A DNA stretch of 64,000 nucleotides from Campylobacteraceae bacterium (GCA_026988975.1 JALSKH010000048.1:23466-87465); one strand, 5' to 3'. Shown: positions 9,897 through 51,029, counted from the stretch's first letter. The notes: generated by a model from the sequence alone, not told the origin. Made by a program: numbers and translations.

Positions 9897-10064
9897 ATTT
9901 TCTCCCGATTGATAAATTTTGATTATTATACATAATTTTAGTTTAAGTGCTAATTTACAATAAAAAATTTACTTTCTATGAGATAGTTATTTTGTATGGA
10001 TTAAATGCTATATCAGTGTTCTTTTGATAGTATGTCTTAATATTAAAAAAATAGTAGGTTTAAA

Positions 10065-11162
10065 TTGTATATATTAATTGCAAATGTTTATCATGCTTTA
10101 TTGGAAAATAATGATATTAGAAAGAAAAAGTTTGCTGATAATAGACTTTTTAGTATAGCGATTTTTATAATATTTGGTTTTGTGGGTCCAGTTATGTGGA
10201 TTTGGGACTATGTTACTGACCCTATTGGAGCAAAAGATACAATTATGCTGAGGTTGATTTTTCTACTACTTTTTTTAGTTGCACTTATTTTTAAATATAT
10301 ATCAAACCTTAGATCTCTGTTGATAATTACTGTACTTGCGATACTCACTATTGAAATTGTATTTGTTGATATTTTAAACCATCTAGATGGTGGTATGACT
10401 TATGGCATTGGTGGTTTTATCTATTTTTTACTTGCTGAAATTATGTGTTTTCAAGGATTTTCATTAGTTTATGGTTTGCTTATGTTGTTTTTTACTGCAC
10501 TTTTACCACATTTGCTTGGTATTATTGGTTTTGCTGAAAACTTTCAACATAGTCATTATGCAGCTTTAATTTGGCCGGCTACTTTTATTGCGATGTTGCT
10601 ACAGACTATTTTATCACTAAATTATCTGCGCAGATATAGATTAGAGCAGCAGTTAGAATTATTATCAAATACAGACCCCATGACAGATGCTTACAATAGG
10701 CGTTATTTTTATAATGTAGGAGAATCAATATTTTTAAAAAACAAAAGAAAAAATACTCCGATTATAGTCGCAATGCTAGATATAGATAATTTTAAAAATA
10801 TTAATGATGAATATGGGCATAATGCGGGAGATATCGGCATAAAAGAGGTGTCAAAAATCTTAAGTAAATATTTAAGAGAGTCTGATTTATTTGCTAGGTT
10901 TGGAGGAGAGGAGTTTTGCATTTTATTGGAGGATATTTCACTAGAAGATGCAAAAAAACTATTTGAAAGAGTAAGAGAATCATTTGAGAAAAATACCTTT
11001 AAATATAATGATATCGAAATTAACTATACAGTATCTATTGGAGTTGCTTTTGGGATGGCAGATTCACTTGAAGATATGGTAAGATTATCGGACAATGCCC
11101 TATACTACTCGAAAAATAATGGAAAAAACCGATGCACTTTTAAACTAGTTCATATAGGATAG
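10065..11162 (+). CDS. membrane-anchored diguanylate cyclase (GGDEF)
   Basis: About 5-6 N-terminal TM helices, then a GGDEF domain with an intact GGEEF site (ARFGGEEFCIL). The TTG start is uncertain. Confidence 0.8.
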   Translation: MYILIANVYHALLENNDIRKKKFADNRLFSIAIFIIFGFVGPVMWIWDYVTDPIGAKDTIMLRLIFLLLFLVALIFKYISNLRSLLIITVLAILTIEIVFVDILNHLDGGMTYGIGGFIYFLLAEIMCFQGFSLVYGLLMLFFTALLPHLLGIIGFAENFQHSHYAALIWPATFIAMLLQTILSLNYLRRYRLEQQLELLSNTDPMTDAYNRRYFYNVGESIFLKNKRKNTPIIVAMLDIDNFKNINDEYGHNAGDIGIKEVSKILSKYLRESDLFARFGGEEFCILLEDISLEDAKKLFERVRESFEKNTFKYNDIEINYTVSIGVAFGMADSLEDMVRLSDNALYYSKNNGKNRCTFKLVHIG

Positions 11163-11173
11163 ATACTAGTACA

Positions 11174-13297
11174 TCATGTTCTAAATTGCTCTAGTTTTAA
11201 AGATAGATCAGTTGTTAGTTTATTGAGGTGTTCAGCCGCACTCGCTATCTCTTCAACGCTTCTTGCATTGTGTGAAGATATTGAGTTGATCTGTGAAACA
11301 TCATCTATGAGTGTATCAACCTGATGTGTAGTCTGAGAAAATTTTTCGATCGTTTTATCACTTGAATCTGTAGCATTTTGTACGATATTTGTAGTTTTTT
11401 CTATCATCTCATTTGTTTGAATTGCTATATCAGATAGCAATTCCATTTGTCTGGAGTTTTCATTCATCTCATCGCTTGTTGATGAGATTGATTGGACTAC
11501 GATGTTGATTGTTGCATGAATCTCTGTAAGAGCTCTTTGGGTTCTTTCAGCTAAATTTCTAACTTCATCTGCAACAACTGCGAAACCTCGACCATGCTCT
11601 CCTGCACGAGCCGCTTCTATGGCTGCATTTAGAGCAAGTAGATTTGTCTGATCTGCTATATCAGATATTATATTTAGCACATCTTTTACTTGTTCTGTGT
11701 CTTTTGATAATCCTTCCATTTTTTGAGCTATACTTATCTCTGACTCTGCGCTATTTTGTACCTTTGAAGTTAAGTTGACTATCTCATTTTTTGCATTATT
11801 CAACATTTTGTTTGCATCGGTCATCTCATCTTTGCTTTTGTCTGCATCAAGCATTGCATTTTGAATTTCGCTTTTTATTTTTGATGCATTATTGGTAGTT
11901 GAATTGACGATTTCCACAGATTTTTCTACATTTTTACCTACTTCATTTGCGGTTGATGAAAGTTCACTAGATACTGAGGAGTTTTCCATTCCAGATATTT
12001 TTGCATTTTTTATGCTTATATGAACTTTTTCTATAAATTCATTTATATTGTCTGCCATCTCTTTTATTTCATCTTTGCTCGTTACATTTATTCGTTTTGT
12101 TAAGTCTCCATCTCCTCGTGCTAAATCTCCAGTTATATCTAAGATGTTTTTTATAGGGTTTATTATAGTTTTGTTTGTTATAAAAATTACAATAGAACCT
12201 ATAATTAAAACCAATACAAGGACTGTCAAGAAGATATTTATGATAGAAGATTTGATTTTGGATTGAGAATCTTTTTCTATTTGCTTTATGTGAGATTCTA
12301 TATTGTCAACATATTCTCCTGTTCCAATTACCCAGCCCCAAGGTTTAAATAGCTTTACATATGAAATTTTTGGTACAGGCTTATCGTGTCCTGGTTTTGC
12401 CCAACTATATCTAACAACACCTTCGCCACTTTTTTTTACCACTTTTACCATCTCATTAAAAAGATAAATTCCATTTGGGTCTTTGAGATTTGATAAATCT
12501 TTGCCATCTAAGCTTGGCTTTACCGGATGCATTATCATTTTTGGTTGGGTGTCATTTATCCAAAAGTAACCACTTTTGCCAAAACGCATCTGAGAGACTG
12601 TCTTGAGAGCATCCTTTTTCATCTCCAATGTTACATCAGACACATAAGCACCTGTTCCAATTACCCAGCCATAAGGTTTAAATAATCTCACATATGAGAC
12701 TTTTGGTTGAGGTTTGTTGTATCCCGGTTTTGCCCAACTATATCTAACAACACCTTTGCCACTTTTTTTTACCACTTTTACCATCTCATTAAAAAGATAA
12801 ATTCCATTTGGGTCTTTGAGATTTGATAAATCTTTGCCATCTAAGCTTGGTTTTATCGGATGCATTATCATTTTTGGTTGGGTATCATTTATCCAAAAGT
12901 AGCCACTTTTGCCATATTTTGCAGATGATATTATATCTATCAGTTGTTTTTGCAACTCTTCTTTTGTTGAGTTGTCTTTGTTTTTATTATATGTTTCTTC
13001 CAAAATAGAAAATAGAAAATTTATCTGTTTTTCAAGTTTTGTTTCAACTTCTATTCGTATCTTGTCCTTGGAAGTTCTATTGTAGAAAGATTCAACAGAT
13101 TTTATAGCAACACTAACATAATTTTTTAATTCATTTTCCTTGTTTTTATAGGCTTCAGATCTATAGTTTTTAATATTTTGTTTTGTAAGAGAGTCTATAC
13201 TGTAGATAGTTTCAAGCATAATTCCAGCAGAAACAGCTATGATTGTAAATAGTATAATAAGTAAAATTTTAAACTTAATTGTAATAGACTTTTTCAT
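11174..13297 (-). CDS. methyl-accepting chemotaxis protein with two tandem sCache_2-like sensor modules
   Basis: 707 aa. The periplasmic region contains the [19 protein letters not shown]...WVIGTG module twice. HAMP follows, then the MCP signalling domain ([32 protein letters not shown]). Confidence 0.9.
12318..12580. repeat. Intragenic direct repeat, copy 1 (Cache module duplication)
   Basis: 263 bp that align colinearly with 12651-12913 (period 333 bp = 111 codons). The sub-block 12393-12517 differs from 12726-12850 at a single base. Confidence 0.85.
12651..12913. repeat. Intragenic direct repeat, copy 2 (Cache module duplication)
   Basis: See 12318-12580. Confidence 0.85.
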
Positions 13298-13499
13298 TCT
13301 TGGTACCCACCTTTAATATTTGAACAATATACCAAATTAGCAACTATTTGAGTTATAGTATCTAAAATAGATAATTGAAGTCAAGTTTTTGGTGGAATAA
13401 AAAAGTAAAAAAGAAACAGAAGAAATAGGGATAAATTTTATTTTTTAATATAAGAAGCTGTACAATCAAAGGAGAATATCTGAAATTAAAGGCTTGTGT

Positions 13500-15371
13500 A
13501 TGAATTTTAAAAACAAAATAGCATTAGTTACATCTGTTATCGTCTTCTTGGGACTAAGTACATTTGGAGTGTTTAGTTATTATCATACTAAGCAAAGTAG
13601 TGTAGTTGAAGTTAAATCTTCAATAAAAGCAAAAGCAAAGAGTTTAGCACAATATATAGATTTGTGGTTACAAAATAAAAAAAGTTTAGTACAAAGCAGT
13701 GCAAAAGAGCTATGGTTAGCAAAAGGAATATCTGATGGAATGTTATCCACAAGATTAAAAAAATATTCAAAAAGAGTAGGGGCCATGAGTGCCTATATCG
13801 GCTTTATAGATGGACGAATGGTCTCTAGTAATGGAAAAAAATATAAGCTTTCTAAATATGATCCAAGATCAAGACCTTGGTACAAACAAGCGATGAAAAC
13901 AAAAAAAGTTGGGGTTACAAATGCATACAAAGGTGCTACTTCTGGAAAGATGATGATATCAATAATGACTCCATTGAAAAATAGAAATGGTGATGTTTTG
14001 GGAGTTTTTAGCACAGATATACTGTTAGACACTTTAACTAAAATCATTACAAATACAAAATTTGATGGTGGTTATGCGGTTTTATATGACAGCAAAGGAA
14101 CTATAGTTGCTCATCCAAACAAAAAGGTTTTAGGCAAAACCTCAGTTATTGCAAAAAGATTTAAAGGTTTGAACGATGGCTTGATAGAGTATAAATACAA
14201 AGGGGAAGATAAACTCCTTGCTTTCTATCGTACAAAACAGACAAATTGGATAACAGCAGTAACTTTTCAAAAAAAAGTAGCCTATAAATTTTTGCGAGAG
14301 CAGACTATCGGACTTTTGGTTCTTGGACTTATAATTTTAGTAATTACACTAATAATTATCATTGTTAGTACGAAAATTTTAATGAAGCCGCTTGATAATT
14401 TAAATACTTTGGTAGAAGAGATGGCAAGTAGCGAGGGTGATTTAAGACAACGATTAGAGGTGAAATCGAATGATGAGTTTGGAGAAGTTTCTAAAAACAT
14501 AAATAACTTTATAGCTAAACTACACGATATAGTCAAAGAATCAAAACAGATAAGTTTAGAAAATTCTGCTATATCAGAAGAGTTGTCTCAAACAGCATTT
14601 TCGGTTGGTAAAAATGTTGAAAATGAGTCTAAAATAGTCTCAAAAACTAGGGAAGAAGGGGTTGAGCTTAGTGACTATTTAGATAATTCTGTTAAGAAAG
14701 CAAAAGAGTCTCAACTTGAATTGGAAAATACATATAGCAGTCTCAATGAAGTTAAAACAAAAGTAGAAGAGCTTGGAAGTACAATGCAAGAGACTTCAGT
14801 TAAAGAGCAGAATTTAGCAGAAAAATTGAATCAAGTAAGTCAAAATGCAAGTGAAGTTAAAGAGGTTTTAAACATTATAAAAGATATAGCTGACCAAACT
14901 AATTTACTCGCACTAAATGCAGCTATTGAAGCAGCAAGGGCTGGTGAACATGGGCGTGGATTTGCTGTTGTTGCTGATGAAGTTAGAAAACTAGCAGAGA
15001 GAACTCAAAAATCACTTGTTGAGATTGATGCAACTATCAATGTTGTGGTACAATCAATCATGGAAGCGAATAGTGAGATATCAGATAATGCACATGATAT
15101 TCAAAGCATAGCGAATGTTTCTGCACATCTCCAAGAGCAAACTACGGAGATATCAAATGTGATTCATCAAGCCATATCTGATGCAAACCAAACGGTAAAT
15201 GATTTTTCAGATACTTCAACTAAGGTTCAGCAAATAGTTGCTAAAGTTGATAATGTAAACAATATATCAAAAAGTAATGTAGATAGTGTTGAAAATGTAT
15301 CTCAGGCTGCAAAACATTTACATTCAATGACAGAAAAATTAAACAGTGAGTTAGATAAATTTCGTTCATAA
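13500..15371 (+). CDS. methyl-accepting chemotaxis protein (dCache_1-type sensor)
   Basis: TM helix, about 250-aa periplasmic domain, second TM, HAMP, then the MCP signalling domain. ATG at 13500 is preferred over TTG at 13494. Confidence 0.9.
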
Positions 15372-15412
15372 ATAACTATGTAATATAGTTTAAAAATTTA
15401 AAGGGGAACATC

Positions 15413-16882
15413 TTGAAAAATTCAAGATATAAATCTTTATATAAAATTCAAGAAAAAGCACTAGAGTGCCTTGTATCTAAAGAGATATATAGTGATAAGA
15501 TAGAAAAGATATTTGAGTTATTAAAATCTTTTTTAAAAGAGATTGATATTTGGATTTTAGACTATAAGATTATTTATCGACATGAAGAGTGCGATGATTT
15601 TACACTCTCAGCAATATCTTTTACACAAAAGCTTATAGATATAATTTTAAGTGAGCAGGAAAAAGAAGAAGATCTACACTTTCTTGCTTACAATGATACA
15701 CTTACAGGACTTAAAAATAAAAACTCTCTTCAAAAAATGCTTAAAACAGATATAAGAAAATATACGCTATTGCTTTTAAATGTGGACAATTTTAGTTATG
15801 TTAATACTGCCTATGGATGTGATTCTGGAGATGTAATTCTCATGAAAATTGCAGAAATTTTAAAGAAAATTTGCAACCATGACCTACTGTATAGAATTAA
15901 TGCTGATGAGTTTGGGATCGCATATAAAGAAGAGATTGATGTTCTTAGTTTGATTAAAAAAATACAGAATTATTTTTTTAATAATGCTATAGTGGTAGAT
16001 AATTTAACTTTTCATGTTACATTTACTTATGGTGCTACAGTTGGAAAATATACAATTTTTAAAAAAGCTACAGTTGCACTCAAAGAGGCTAAATCTAGAG
16101 GGAACAATAGATATAAAATCTTTTATGAGAATGAAGATGTTATAGAAGGATGTCAACTAAAAGAGTTTGTTAGACTAAACAATATCATATATGATGCAAT
16201 TGATAATTCGCAAATGATTCCATTTTTCCAAGGCATATATAATAACTTTGAAAAAAAGATTGATTATTTTGAAGCACTTGTTAGAATAAAAAATGGAGAG
16301 AATTATTATCAACCAAATGTATTTTTAGAGACGGCTAAATTGTCTGGATTGCTACCAAAAATTACTAAAATCATGATAAAAAAGAGTTGTGAAATTATGT
16401 CAAAATATTATTATCATTTTTCAATTAATATAACTGAAGATGATTTGGATCATGATTTTTTATTGGATTTTCTCAAGATAAACTTAGATAGATATTCCAT
16501 TAAACCAGATAGACTTACTCTTGAAATTTTAGAAAATATAAGTGCAGGTTCTAGCAAAAATCATATAAAACAACTATCTGCTTTGAAAAAATGTGGCTAT
16601 AAGATCGCGATAGACGACTTTGGCACAGAGTATTCAAATTTTGAGCGATTGCTTGAACTTGATATAGACTTTTTAAAACTAGATGCTAAATATATCAAAA
16701 ATATAGATACAGACAAGAAAAGTCAAGACATAGTAGAGTCAATTGTGTTTTTTGCTAAGAAAAATAACATACCTTGTATAGCAGAATATGTGCATAATGA
16801 ATCAGTTGCAAATAAAATAAAATCATTAGGCATTGAGTATTCTCAAGGGTATTACTACAGTAAACCATCAAAATTGATCTAA
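15413..16882 (+). CDS. GGDEF(degenerate)-EAL protein, probable c-di-GMP phosphodiesterase
   Basis: The GGDEF position reads NADEF (degenerate). The EAL domain carries FEALVR and DDFGTEYSNF. TTG start after an AAAGGGG ribosome-binding site. Confidence 0.8.
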   Translation: MKNSRYKSLYKIQEKALECLVSKEIYSDKIEKIFELLKSFLKEIDIWILDYKIIYRHEECDDFTLSAISFTQKLIDIILSEQEKEEDLHFLAYNDTLTGLKNKNSLQKMLKTDIRKYTLLLLNVDNFSYVNTAYGCDSGDVILMKIAEILKKICNHDLLYRINADEFGIAYKEEIDVLSLIKKIQNYFFNNAIVVDNLTFHVTFTYGATVGKYTIFKKATVALKEAKSRGNNRYKIFYENEDVIEGCQLKEFVRLNNIIYDAIDNSQMIPFFQGIYNNFEKKIDYFEALVRIKNGENYYQPNVFLETAKLSGLLPKITKIMIKKSCEIMSKYYYHFSINITEDDLDHDFLLDFLKINLDRYSIKPDRLTLEILENISAGSSKNHIKQLSALKKCGYKIAIDDFGTEYSNFERLLELDIDFLKLDAKYIKNIDTDKKSQDIVESIVFFAKKNNIPCIAEYVHNESVANKIKSLGIEYSQGYYYSKPSKLI

Positions 16883-29208: not shown

Positions 29209-29879
29209 TTAATGCAAATATATTGATTATAGAAGATGAAGAGGATCTGCTTGAGCTACTAGAATATCATCTGCAAAAAGCTGGTTTTGGTGCAACTGGT
29301 TTTCTTTCTACTAAAAAAGTGGAAGAGATGATTTGTGAGGAAGATGTAGATTTGCTTATAGTTGATAGAAATCTCCCCGGTGTTGAGGGGAGTGAATTTG
29401 TTAAATATTTAAGAGATAAAGGGTACGAAATCCCTGCTATATTTGTAAGTGCAAAAGATAGCGATGAGCAGATAGAAGAGGGCTTTTTGCGAGGAGGAGA
29501 TGATTATATAACCAAACCTTACAACATAAATGAGCTAATCTTAAGAGTAAAAGCCATACTTCGCAGGACTTCTAGCAAAACAAGTGGTAAAATTGCATAT
29601 AAAGAGTTAGAGATTGACATAGATCAAAGAGAAGTTTTTGTGGGAAATGAAGAGATAGCTCTTAGTAAACTTGAATTTGATCTTTTACTCTATTTTATGG
29701 AAAACAGAGGAGTTGTTTTGGATAGAAACACTCTTTTGGAAGATGTTTGGAAAGATAAAGATTTCAAACAAGAAAAAACAGTAAATGTGACTGTGAACCG
29801 CCTTAGAAAAAAGATAGATCCTCAAAATCAAAAGTATTATTTAGAGTCGATCAGAGGTGTAGGATATAAGTTTTGTTAA
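29205..29879 (+). CDS. OmpR-family response regulator (PhoB/PhosR-like)
   Basis: Receiver domain (LIIEDEEDL...DLLIVDRNLPG) plus a winged-helix C-terminus (RGVGYKF). Lies in the pst operon context. Confidence 0.85.
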   Translation: MINANILIIEDEEDLLELLEYHLQKAGFGATGFLSTKKVEEMICEEDVDLLIVDRNLPGVEGSEFVKYLRDKGYEIPAIFVSAKDSDEQIEEGFLRGGDDYITKPYNINELILRVKAILRRTSSKTSGKIAYKELEIDIDQREVFVGNEEIALSKLEFDLLLYFMENRGVVLDRNTLLEDVWKDKDFKQEKTVNVTVNRLRKKIDPQNQKYYLESIRGVGYKFC

Positions 29880-31270
29880 GATTAAATCAGCTCTATTTTC
29901 GTAACTTTTTTCTTCTTTTTTTAGGCACAATTTTGGTTATATCAGCTTCTGGTTACTTTTTGCTAGAGAAGATAGAGATAAACAACCATAGATTGATGCT
30001 GAAAAATATGATAAATGAGTTTGTTTTAATGAATAATAAAACAACAGATATAAACTCTCTCATAGCTAAAATACACAAAAATACACAAGCTAGAGTAACA
30101 ATCATCGATAAAAATGGAGTCGTTAAGTTTGAGAGCAATAGATCTACAAAAGGGATGGAAAATCATCTCCATAGACCAGAAATAGAGCAGTCACTAAAAC
30201 ACGAATTTGGATCTAGCGTTAGGCATTCAGTGAGTGTTGGTGTTGATTTTTTGTATGTTGCAAAAAGGGTTGATGACCATTTTATACGCATGGCATATTC
30301 ATTGGGTCAGATAAAGAGTAAATTTTTAAGATTTTGGCTTACTACAATCGCACTTTTTTCATTGGTTTTGTTTGTGTCTCTGTTTATCGCTTGGAGGATA
30401 AATAAAAAGATAACTTTTGATCTTAAAGCCATAAATGAGAGTTTGGAAAATTTGCTAAAAAAGAATTATGAGAGAGATTTTAACTCTGTTAAGTGTTGCA
30501 AAGAGTTTGATATCATCTCAAAAAGGATAGAGAAAGTATCTAGAAGACTAGAAAAAAGAGACAAGCAGAAAAACAAATATACAAAAAAATTAAAAGAACT
30601 CAGTAAAAAGCAGGGAGATATCATATCTGCGATTAGCCATGAATTTAAAAATCCAATCGCAGCAGTCATGGGATACGCTCAAAGTGTTAAAGATGACGAT
30701 ATGCTAAGCCATGAGATAAGAGATAAATTTTTGGATAAAGTGATAAAAAATGCTCATAAGATTTCAAATATGATAGATAGATTGGCAATGGCTATCAAAT
30801 TTGAAAATGATACTTTTATACCAGAATTTTCAAAGTTTAAACTTCTAAGTTTAATTGAAGATGTAAAAGAGACACTTTTGCAAAAGTATAGAGGTAGAGA
30901 CATAATGATAGCCGTAGAAGATATCTATATAAATGCAGACAGAGTTATGTTTGAAAATTTACTTATAAACTTAATGGAAAATGCTCTAAAATATTCCGAG
31001 GACACTGTACATGTAGAGCTTAAAAATTCAGAACTATCTATCAACGATAGTGGAATCGGCATAGAAGAAGAGGACATAAACAACATAACAAAACGCTTCT
31101 TCAGAGTGGATTCGCTAACATGGGACAACTCCATAGGAGTAGGGCTATATATAGTAAAATACATACTAAAACTTCACAATAGTGAGCTAGAAATCAAAAG
31201 TAAAATTGGAGTAGGATCCAAGTTTTATTTTGATATAAAGTACCTAACCATAAGTAAAACCAACCAATAG
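29873..31270 (+). CDS. sensor histidine kinase (PhoR/PhosS-like)
   Basis: Two TM helices, H-box SHEFKNP, N, G1 and G2 boxes (NDSGIGI, GVGLYIV). The last 11 codons lie inside the left arm of element B1. Confidence 0.85.
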   Translation: MLRLNQLYFRNFFLLFLGTILVISASGYFLLEKIEINNHRLMLKNMINEFVLMNNKTTDINSLIAKIHKNTQARVTIIDKNGVVKFESNRSTKGMENHLHRPEIEQSLKHEFGSSVRHSVSVGVDFLYVAKRVDDHFIRMAYSLGQIKSKFLRFWLTTIALFSLVLFVSLFIAWRINKKITFDLKAINESLENLLKKNYERDFNSVKCCKEFDIISKRIEKVSRRLEKRDKQKNKYTKKLKELSKKQGDIISAISHEFKNPIAAVMGYAQSVKDDDMLSHEIRDKFLDKVIKNAHKISNMIDRLAMAIKFENDTFIPEFSKFKLLSLIEDVKETLLQKYRGRDIMIAVEDIYINADRVMFENLLINLMENALKYSEDTVHVELKNSELSINDSGIGIEEEDINNITKRFFRVDSLTWDNSIGVGLYIVKYILKLHNSELEIKSKIGVGSKFYFDIKYLTISKTNQ

Positions 31271-31507
31271 CAAAAAGATAATGGTGCGAGTACAAGGCAG
31301 ATTTTCGTAGGACTAGCCATAGCTAATTCAAGAAAATCTAACGCCGTAATCGTGCCATTATCTTTTTGTCCGAAGGAAAGTTAGTAAAACACTCATCTGC
31401 TGCGTTAGAAACTCTTGATGTACAATAAGTACACCTGCGAATTTCTGCCTTGCATATAAGTGCTTTACTAGCTTCTATTGGTTGGCTTTACTTATGGTTA
31501 GGTACTT
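31238..31507 (+). mobile_element. Family B structured MITE-like element, copy B1
   Basis: 33-bp terminal inverted repeats (31238-31270 and 31475-31507, one mismatch). The 204-nt core forms two long hairpins (31271-31368 and about 31373-31474). It shares motifs and spacing with B2. Confidence 0.8.
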
Positions 31508-32676
31508 AGCAAACTCAAAACTGATATATAGGGTATGAAGATCATAGAGCTTATAAATACTAAGTAGGTTACCACTGTTGGTTTGCAATCAAATAGACTA
31601 GCTAGACTTACATTTGTTATGGCTAGAGGCACTATTAGCTCTAGTATGGTGATATTTAGTGGTAGTTTTTCAAGATGAAAAAGATATAAAATCAGCCATG
31701 CTATCAGGGGAATGAGTAGAAATTTGAGAGATAGAACAGTGCTTAAAATTTTTACACTTATCTCTTTAAATTTTATACCTTTTAGAAATATACCAAGAAT
31801 TATAAGCTGCATCACAATTGCTGTGTATGAGCCCATCTCTAAAGTTTTATATAGGCTTACATTTAACTTTACATCTAGAAAGTTAAAAATTAAAGCGATA
31901 AAAGAAGCTCATATAATCGGCATTTTAAAGACATTTAATACCGACATTTTTATGCTGTAACTTCCTCTAGAGTATATATAAACTCCAACTGTATATACAA
32001 AAAGCATGCTTACTGTATTGATTAAACTTGTGTATATGATGGATGATTTTGAAAAGAGGACGATTCCAAGCGGTATGCCTATGCTTCCTGTTATGCCTGT
32101 TACGCTTGACATTGAGACTATCGATATATCTTTTGGATTGGTGAAGAGTCTCTTTGCGATACTACTCGAAACGATCAGTGCGATTAGTGTGATCAAAATA
32201 TATAAAAAAGGGACTTTTAAAATACTTATATCTATCTTTTGTGTTAATAACTGACCTTACGCACTATAAGCACACCTAGGCAGAATGAGAAAGTATCATA
32301 TGCGAGGCAGTTTGCTTTTAGCGTAGCCGTAGCTACGGTAGAAGTAAACTAACGAAGCAGATGGTGCTTTATCATTCTGCCCTACGGATGATAAAATTTG
32401 CACCCTACTGCTGCGTCAGCATAGCTTCATAGTAGTATAACTACAATTTTGCTATACTTCCTTGCATTAGAGTGCAACTTTTATCACCTAGGTGTGCTTA
32501 TAGTGCGTAAGGTCAGTTAATAATCCCCAAAAAGAGAGGGTTGGCAATAAGAAATAGACATTTAATTTTACGATACTTTTTTCATTCAGCTCATCTTTGA
32601 GTATAACTTTGGCAATGTACCCAATAAGCACAAAAAAATATATAGAAATGATAGAAAAAAAATTATCTAGAAAAAT
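31498..32676 (-). pseudogene. AEC (auxin efflux carrier) family transporter, disrupted
   Basis: The N-terminal part (32524-32676, FLDNFFSIISIYFFVLIGYIAK...LSFWGLL) and the downstream parts (31498-32243) are colinear once B2 and one TSD copy are removed. There is also an in-frame TGA at 31909-31911, and the conserved N-terminus has no ATG (only ATT at 32674-32676). Confidence 0.85.
32251..32516 (+). mobile_element. Family B structured MITE-like element, copy B2, inserted in the AEC transporter gene
   Basis: Perfect 30-bp terminal inverted repeats CTGACCTTACGCACTATAAGCACACCTAGG (32251-32280 and 32487-32516). Flanked by the direct repeat TTAATAA (32244-32250 and 32517-32523). Removing it restores the reading frame ...SFWGLLTQKIDIS.... 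Confidence 0.9.
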
Positions 32677-32732
32677 AGTTACTCCTTATCAAACTTCTCT
32701 TAAAAGAAGCTTGATAACATTTTACCAAATCT

Positions 32733-50865: not shown

Positions 50866-50892
50866 TGACCGATGTTATAGTGCGTAAGATCA
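50866..50892. repeat. Family B terminal-repeat remnant (solo end or footprint)
   Basis: TTATAGTGCGTAAGATCA (50875-50892) matches the B2 right terminus TTATAGTGCGTAAGGTCA at 17 of 18 positions. TGACC, the first bases of the B2 left terminus, lies 4 nt upstream (50866-50870). Confidence 0.55.
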
Positions 50893-51029
50893 AATTATAA
50901 CTAAAATTTGTTTTAAATGGGCTAAAGAAGAGATGTTTAAGTTGGTTTAATCATCTTTTAACCCAAATAAACATAAAATAAGCCGGTAGACTTTAATAGA
51001 GAAAGTCTAATTATCTCAAAGGTTAAAAC

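Follow-up and report, generated by a model that had tools for sequence, protein, structure and literature searches.

A 64,000-nt stretch of genomic DNA from a Campylobacteraceae bacterium (GCA_026988975.1, JALSKH010000048.1:23466-87465; hereafter the window) contains a MITE (a transposable element of the miniature inverted-repeat type), here called B2, within a gene for an AEC-family (Mem_trans) transporter, and close to it a second element, B1. B2 is a MITE: it is short and non-coding, has terminal inverted repeats (TIRs), is flanked by a target duplication that is single at an empty site, and has many near-identical copies elsewhere. It was most probably inserted by a transposase acting in trans on its TIRs with a 7-bp stagger, its interior being two inverted copies of a hairpin (H) that would serve as a MITE-specific cis module. 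Matches to H occur in about nine bacterial phyla.

Insertion of B2 into the AEC gene

B2 is 266 bp long (window positions 32251-32516) and does not encode a protein. Its TIRs agree at 30 of 30 positions with 0 mismatches (0.00 such repeats expected by chance, 100 shuffles), and TTAATAA stands on either side, exactly where a first-pass annotation of the sequence had placed these features. Deletion of B2 and one TTAATAA restores a minus-strand reading frame (...PTLSFWGLL followed by TQKIDISILKVPF...) that encodes an AEC/Mem_trans permease. The restored protein is gapless across the conserved junction FWGLL/TQKIDIS in 11 orthologues, which upholds the seamless frame proposed in that annotation. 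A metagenome contig (L001; ENA ERZ27262668, 1207 bp) with 94-96% nucleotide identity to this segment of the window has an uninterrupted AEC site with a single TTAATAA and no B2. Thus, the insertion in the window amounts to exactly 273 nt, and the claim of a transposition-type insertion with a 7-bp duplication is supported both by the empty site in this sister strain and by the orthologue alignment.

Readings other than insertion would make B2 part of the native coding sequence, an intervening sequence or a product of faulty assembly. In favour of such a reading, the window is a single assembly; nothing further supports it. Against it, L001 has an empty site, the 11 orthologues lack the element and do not contain the 266 bp as coding sequence, in-frame stop codons occur inside B2, and dozens of near-identical copies exist at other loci. 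This reading, which retains practically no probability, is refuted by the orthologues, L001 and the other copies.

The host AEC gene is a pseudogene: its start codon is lost, B2 interrupts it near codon ~53, and it contains an in-frame TGA (Table 1). Its last codons and stop come from B1. The AEC gene of L001, which carries no MITE, has a premature stop of its own (...KNI and stop; L001 840-852, against window position ~31770). Because this stop differs from that of the window, the gene is decaying independently in both lineages.

The B2 family and the related element B1

Contrary to an outcome that the first-pass annotation had named as refuting it, other copies of B2 do exist: the B2 repeat pattern matched 55 metagenome loci, and a single sample (Ga0256840) accounts for nearly all of them. 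This sample matches a Sulfurospirillum sp. metagenome-assembled genome (MAG; JALSLU01) showing partial synteny with the window. Thirty-one full-length B2-type copies are 265-267 bp long and 89.5-96.6% identical to B2; among 29 distinct family copies, both TIRs are the least variable parts and the central mini-hairpin is the most variable. Outward from 101 ends, the flanks carry a signal at exactly seven positions, TTAWWAA (counts per 101 ends, approximately percentages: T86 T95 A76 W W A84 A70), followed by background composition. Direct repeats of 6-8 bp flank 24 of 39 B2-type copies, with a mode of 7 and the consensus TTAWTAA. Perfect duplications that depart from this consensus also exist (TCTATAA, TTAACAA); they fix the boundary of the element at CTGACC and rule out other parses. 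Two such parses were rejected: a TA duplication (TA/ACTGACC..GGTCAGT/TA) predicts an extra Leu codon that is absent from L001 and from all orthologues, and a 270-bp element with a 3-bp duplication is ruled out by off-consensus flanks (TCTATAA, ATA[C/T]TAT).

Deletion derivatives also belong to the family. Those with one hairpin measure 154-169 bp, and some of them have perfect duplications; others are palindromes of the repeats alone (50-57 bp) or solo ends. All single-end matches that might have marked a long repeat-bounded element turned out to be deletion derivatives, contig-end truncations or solo ends. The 64-kb window holds no larger element bounded by B2 repeats, just one solo end (Table 1). 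ATTATAA, which resembles the target consensus of the B2 family, follows this solo end, which may be the remnant of a lost B2-type copy.

In the related Sulfurospirillum MAG, a B2-type MITE (L096 6795-7060) lies between two syntenic genes. At the corresponding position the window has a ~7-kb signalling block (9968-16864) composed of GGDEF, two divergent methyl-accepting chemotaxis protein (MCP) paralogues and GGDEF-EAL. A 206-nt inverted repeat at 11.5/14.9 kb (11486/14854) was considered as a transposon and rejected; it consists of two MCP paralogues.

B1 has the same architecture as B2 and different terminal repeats, the cores of which are homologous to those of B2 (B2-type terminus CTGACCTTACGCAC, B1-type terminus AAGTACCTAACC). 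The motifs reported earlier as common to the two elements were recovered by aligning both strands: they occur in both halves of B1 and of B2, each half reading inward from its own end. B1 is missing from L001: the window has 270 nt more at this site, the junction is ambiguous by no more than 1 nt, and there is no clean target duplication. B1 lies where two convergent genes, one for a histidine kinase (29873-31270, + strand) and the AEC gene (here 31498-31836, - strand), overlap at their 3' ends, and gives both of them new C-terminal residues and a stop (...KYLTISKTNQ in the kinase, ...ST in the AEC protein). Four further B1-type copies (L139, L164, L137 and L087) have ends AAGTAC/GTACTT (TAGTAC/GGTACT in L139) and no direct repeats. 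Locally, MITEs have inactivated one gene and rewritten two gene ends in this uncultured Campylobacterota lineage.

Hairpin H and its relatives in other phyla

The interior of B2 had been described as something other than filler, and it consists of two copies of H, a hairpin in which pairing covaries across about 100 sequences. In the predicted fold of B2, a stem formed by the terminal repeats closes two imperfect hairpins of ~100 nt; the three-helix junction proposed in the first-pass annotation is predicted for both strands. Computed RNA folding energies are -143.1 kcal/mol for the + strand (z = -17) and -136.1 for the - strand (z = -15), and the single-stranded DNA (ssDNA) fold reaches -80.5 (z = -14).

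H is a hairpin of ~110 nt with the motif TGCRAGGMAG (M1), a variable paired stem and then CTRACGMAGCAG (M2). In the longer form used for motif order, ATGCRAGGMAG precedes a 36-38-nt stem-loop and M2. The layout comprises a ~20-bp lower stem, a purine-rich internal loop, a variable upper stem and an apical loop. Both halves of B1 and of B2 match this definition, as sequences of the training set. A pattern built from the B1 and B2 motifs and scanned against bacterial contigs, one genome per species, matched at least 114 genome stretches, where ~16 were expected by chance as estimated from the information content of the pattern. With a covariance model, R1, scores of 54-94 bits were obtained for 97 of 99 genome loci from the scan (100 sources including the window) and of 54-91 bits for about 95 loci outside the training set, while chance matches to the pattern scored below 20 bits. 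According to record titles, the hosts belong to Alpha-, Beta- and Gammaproteobacteria, Campylobacterota, Bacillota, Actinomycetota, Planctomycetota, Lentisphaerota/Victivallales, Elusimicrobiota, Desulfobacterota and Bacteroidota. A variant H in Pseudoalteromonas (L173 3026-3140) has TAC...GTA instead of TGC...GCA, and its M2 is TAACACAGTAG; it nevertheless reaches 43 bits, and the strict pattern therefore undercounts the family. The single match in viral contigs, in a GC-rich tail-fibre gene, was discarded as a chance match. For window positions 31100-32700 and six related loci, no Rfam 15 family matched at gathering scores, and relaxing the threshold to E<=10 gave no credible match.

In alignments of about 100 sequences, which were fitted to R1 and hence are biased toward structure, 92.9% of cells at paired positions are paired (62.6% in shuffles) and the covariation score is 0.696 (0.17 in shuffles, 0 of 500 reaching it; <=0.15 with partners slid), with double changes in 18 of 22 pairs. 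The internal loop covaries in a non-Watson-Crick manner: GGCAG goes with CTAACG and GGAAG with CTGACG (C/A or A/G) in 82 of 85 distinct cores, and a G at position 4 of M1 is matched by an A at position 7 of M2 in 9 of 9 cases. The loop 5'-RAGGM-3' / 5'-RACGM(A)-3' may thus form sheared G.A-type pairs around one G-C, with a probable further GA/GA step under the UGC/GCA helix. Paired positions contain 171 G.T pairs and 27 A.C pairs, which indicates that the H-sense strand folds better than its complement.

Outside Campylobacterota, H lies in elements of 161-169 bp with one H, or of ~268 bp with H, a CCC-loop-GGG mini-hairpin and a second hairpin. There are also elements of ~315 bp with extra non-H sequence. 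The central mini-hairpin of B2 has its counterpart in the CCC-N3-4-GGG element of the two-hairpin relatives. The distance from terminus to M1 is 53-54 nt in 27 of 47 elements, and 36 elements from other phyla share the flank consensus Y-TA/G...C/TA-R. Tandem H-MITEs share a single TA. Copies arranged head-to-tail on one TA, and one copy nested in another (L010, L111, L101, L081), suggest that the ends of H-MITEs are themselves preferred insertion targets.

The ends of these relatives lead to the IS5 family. A BLAST search with one MITE arm retrieved an IS5-family insertion sequence (IS) of ~880 bp from Alteromonas macleodii plasmids, which encodes a 252-aa transposase (DUF4096 + DDE_Tnp_1; NCBIfam transpos_IS5_3, 267 bits), has CTAG...CTAG flanks and an end homologous over ~45 nt to the arms of Alteromonadales H-MITEs. 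The end of a Psychrobacter IS5-family element (TAGGGCGTGTTGA...) matches Rheinheimera and Paenibacillus MITE ends, and that of ISKpn12 (TAGGGTCAGGACCCATTGAT...) matches Sphingomonadales MITE ends. Pseudoalteromonas, Vibrio and Catenovulum chromids likewise carry the Rheinheimera-type element. The B1 end (AA/GTAC...) aligns positionally with the TA/GTAC... ends of the IS5-type relatives. The 53-nt arm of H-MITEs may simply be a copied IS end. Across phyla, conservation is highest in the interior, while the terminal repeats differ by lineage and in three lineages match local IS5-type elements; a single interior type is found with three junction signatures, TA in most phyla, none in B1-type copies and 6-8 bp in B2-type copies.

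H is absent from all seven IS5-family insertion sequences checked, which makes it a MITE-specific cis module and not a remnant of a transposase gene. Alternatively, H might be a separate mobile or recombinogenic hairpin that colonises the centres of palindromic repeat-only MITEs, B2 being a composite, a parasite within a parasite. The lack of H in autonomous IS5 elements would fit this account, as would the fact that H is found in combination with numerous unrelated types of repeat and with three flank signatures, and the range of forms with zero (50-57-bp repeat-only), one or two hairpins or with the extra sequence of the ~315-bp class. However, no H lies outside a repeat-bounded element among about 100 loci, the position of H and the arm length are fixed, and deletion can equally produce the repeat-only forms; the account has a very slim chance of being correct.

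Proteins recurring beside H loci are common signalling proteins alone, with no transposase among them. The commonest neighbours of H-MITEs (L003-L116) are PAS/GGDEF-like proteins, MCPs and histidine kinases, as for B1, and may reflect the mere abundance of these families. No exact-sequence record was found for the FlgI and the histidine kinase of the window.

Table 1. Features of the B1-B2 region and the solo end, in window coordinates
Feature	Position	Strand	Basis
B1, 270 bp, ends AAGTACCTAACC...GGTTAGGTACTT	31238-31507	.	sequence, fold, R1; absent from L001
B1 hairpins H	31263-31377; 31369-31482	+; -	R1 matches (training sequences)
Disrupted AEC-family (Mem_trans) transporter pseudogene	31498-32682	-	frame analysis, orthologues, L001
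AEC in-frame TGA, TGG to TGA (Trp in relatives)	31909-31911	-	comparison with L001
AEC start codon, GTG to GTA	32680-32682	-	comparison with L001
B2 left target-site duplication, TTAATAA	32244-32250	.	heptamer single at the L001 empty site
B2 left TIR, 30 bp, CTGACCTTACGCACTATAAGCACACCTAGG	32251-32280	+	perfect match to right repeat
Hairpin H copy 1 (H-sense = + strand)	32281-32381	+	fold, motif scan, R1 (match 32273-32388, 83.4 bits; training sequence)
H copy 1, M1 ATGCGAGGCAG	32300-32310		motif scan
H copy 1, M2 CTAACGAAGCAG	32349-32360		motif scan
Central mini-hairpin CCC-TAC-GG at dyad centre	32380-32387	.	sequence; most variable part within family
Hairpin H copy 2 (H-sense = - strand)	32386-32486	-	fold, motif scan, R1 (match 32380-32494, 68.3 bits; training sequence)
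H copy 2, M2 CTGACGCAGCAG	32408-32419		motif scan
H copy 2, M1 ATGCAAGGAAG	32457-32467		motif scan
B2 right TIR, 30 bp	32487-32516	-	CTGACCTTACGCACTATAAGCACACCTAGG on - strand
B2 right target-site duplication, TTAATAA	32517-32523	.	single in L001
Solo B2-type end fragment, 19 nt, TTATAGTGCGTAAGATCAA, intergenic	50875-50893	-	sequence match; similar solo ends in L132, L140

Elsewhere in the window, the RNase P RNA gene (639-1069, 257.7 bits) exceeds its counterpart in the related MAG by ~60 nt. Its 5' region includes a 73-nt hairpin that is present twice (653-725 and 806-878, 100% identical), the second copy replacing a short helix deeper in the gene; the repeat either reflects a genuine duplication or insertion within the gene or arose in assembly.

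Proposed transposition, the possible role of H and known systems

In the proposed course of events, a transposase encoded elsewhere would recognise the 30-bp terminal repeats of B2, make a 7-bp staggered cut at TTAATAA in the AEC gene and join the 266-bp element, after which gap repair would duplicate the heptamer. The AEC protein would thereby be truncated, and the gene may have decayed later or may already have been dispensable. The enzyme is probably of the DDE type; the CTGAC... ends of B2 and its 6-8-bp duplications are features that we take to be IS4/IS5-superfamily-like. B2 is non-autonomous, as the first-pass annotation had concluded: its longest internal open reading frame (ORF) is 35 aa, and neither the window nor 417 kb of related contigs contains a partner. 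Neither a transposase nor a recurring ORF turned up in those contigs or in the window, not every ORF of which is annotated. A tblastn search with an IS5 transposase gave no match in the window or in the fetched loci, and plasmid BLAST searches with B2 or Paenibacillus arms gave no transposase-adjacent match. No IS with ends matching B2's own repeats was found.

Several observations weigh against transposition in trans with H as a cis module. Plasmid records, like the window and the 417 kb of related contigs, hold no autonomous partner with B2 repeats. B2 has a 7-bp duplication where its IS5-type relatives have TA flanks, and B2-type copies do not have the Y-TA-R insertion site of IS5-family-derived MITEs. 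B1-type copies without a duplication and B2-type copies with one are not easily reconciled with one enzyme of one geometry. The direct repeat is missing in 15 of 39 B2-type copies, which could result from short-read mis-joins across a 266-bp repeat, from inter-copy recombination or from a second, duplication-free, B1-like mode of insertion. Since autonomous insertion sequences lack H, it is not required for transposase recognition. Finally, single-H elements lie in either orientation to the genes beside them without bias (++ 10, -- 15, +- 11, -+ 11).

Duplication-free B1-type copies would be expected if the element moved as a folded single DNA strand, with an HUH/Y1 enzyme (IS200/IS605 TnpA-like or RAYT-like) recognising H and cutting at the base of the long stem. 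The strand-specific fold is in keeping with such a route, as are the single-H relatives, which form one long hairpin throughout, and the constant ~53 nt from terminus to H despite unrelated repeats. However, arms copied from IS5 ends account for that distance equally well, the 6-8-bp duplications of B2-type copies are not expected, the ends are symmetric on both strands, and no Y1 gene was seen near any copy, nor any recurrent Y1-like ORF. We give this route a slim chance.

Under the preferred reading, a DDE-type transposase acting on the TIRs, H itself would act in cis as a folded single strand, either ssDNA or RNA. This is favoured because pairing, wobble asymmetry and loop covariation are strand-specific. 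With two inverted copies, each strand would carry one H that folds correctly, in whichever direction the element lies. Promoter- and terminator-like sites are not above chance, and together with the lack of orientation bias this argues against a role of H through host read-through transcription.

The same data bear on whether the element is a structured non-coding RNA gene, its repeats forming the closing helix P1 and H the core, that is spread by RNA or reverse transcription or kept for a benefit to the host (processing site, mRNA stabiliser or decoy). Covariation that includes the non-Watson-Crick kind typical of RNA 3D motifs, the 171:27 ratio of G.U to A.C, the very stable three-way fold, and repeats that diverge between lineages while the H loops are invariant would all suit an RNA gene. 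It is nevertheless unlikely, because the duplication length is centred on 7 bp within a symmetric target consensus, the ends of relatives are homologous to those of IS5-family DNA transposons and tandem copies are separated by a single TA. Moreover, there is no reverse transcriptase nearby and no excess of promoters or terminators, single-H elements are unbiased in orientation to genes, and Rfam has no match. Non-coding RNA, a HUH enzyme and a nested H all fit the defined duplications and IS5-type ends less well than transposase-mediated insertion through the TIRs.

More tentatively, H may be an uncatalogued pan-bacterial module that folds on one strand only, around a stack of non-canonical G.A-type pairs, and that IS4/IS5-superfamily MITEs have long carried because it is recognised as RNA or ssDNA by a conserved partner, either a protein of the host or the transposition machinery; we consider this possible rather than probable. 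If it is true, a whole class of miniature transposons owes its success in part to a specific folded motif, and not to terminal repeats alone, and the inverted two-copy layout of B1 and B2 would be an adaptation for orientation independence. MITE interiors are usually regarded as the neutral filler of deletion remnants, whereas the conservation of H argues for a structured motif that acts in cis and follows a selective logic of its own. H thus offers an entry point to synapsis, persistence and host-transcript effects of very short transposons. It is also easily searchable, so that it flags this MITE class in any genome, and it explains many contig breaks in metagenome-assembled genomes.

Among known systems, REP/REPIN elements mobilised with RAYT transposases are GTAG/CGTC-tagged palindromes (PMC3733652). 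Like H, they are hairpin-forming repeats that often occur as inverted pairs, and a CGTC/CGTT tag stands beside the upper stem of H on the complementary strand. However, REP/REPIN repeats are 20-40 bp long and make no duplication. B2 was rejected as a REP/REPIN or IS200/IS605-derived palindrome on account of its 7-bp duplication and 30-bp repeats and the lack of a recurrent Y1-like ORF. The ERIC/IRU elements of enterobacteria are, like H-MITEs, TA-flanked palindromic MITEs, and an E. coli copy (TGCAGGAAGG...AAACGCAGCA) has M1/M2-like sequences, but they are 127 bp long with much shorter arms. R1 gave no match on the E. coli ERIC copy even with filters off, so the likeness is superficial. YPAL/RU-2 (168 bp) was also rejected, having no TA termini and duplications of 3-26 bp. 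Correia elements differ from B2 in their defining features.

The B2 end CTGACCTTACGCACTAT resembles IS4-family ends such as the outside end of Tn5/IS50, CTGACTCTTATACACAAGT; this is a resemblance only, and no IS4-type partner was identified. Subgroups of the IS4 family make 7-9-bp duplications. In bacteria, small IS5-family insertion sequences (~850-1000 bp; transpos_IS5_3; DUF4096 + DDE_Tnp_1/DDE_Tnp_1_2; relatives ISAba31, ISLpl3 and ISKpn12), together with their derived MITEs, correspond to plant Tourist MITEs and PIF/Harbinger. They have the CTAG/Y-TA-R flanks and nearly the same TIRs as the H-MITEs outside Campylobacterota, but the insertion sequences lack H, while B2 starts with CTGACC and duplicates 6-8 bp.

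Bacterial MITEs (Correia/NEMIS, RUP, ERIC and others) have been reviewed (PMC2229807, PMC10969869). No literature on the H motifs or on a structured MITE shared across phyla was found, and a cross-phylum structured module is not described in PMC2229807, PMC10969869 or PMC11602168, which include a 2024 large-scale MITE survey, although this is not proof of novelty. Like B2, bacterial MITEs are small and non-coding, have TIRs, a target duplication, many copies and AT-rich targets, are predicted to give long-hairpin transcripts, and are inserted both in and between genes. B2 differs from them in an interior that is a conserved structured module across phyla and in duplications of 6-8 bp and not TA. 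The MITE insertion itself is of a known kind; what sets it apart is the conserved structured core together with the B2-type insertion signature.

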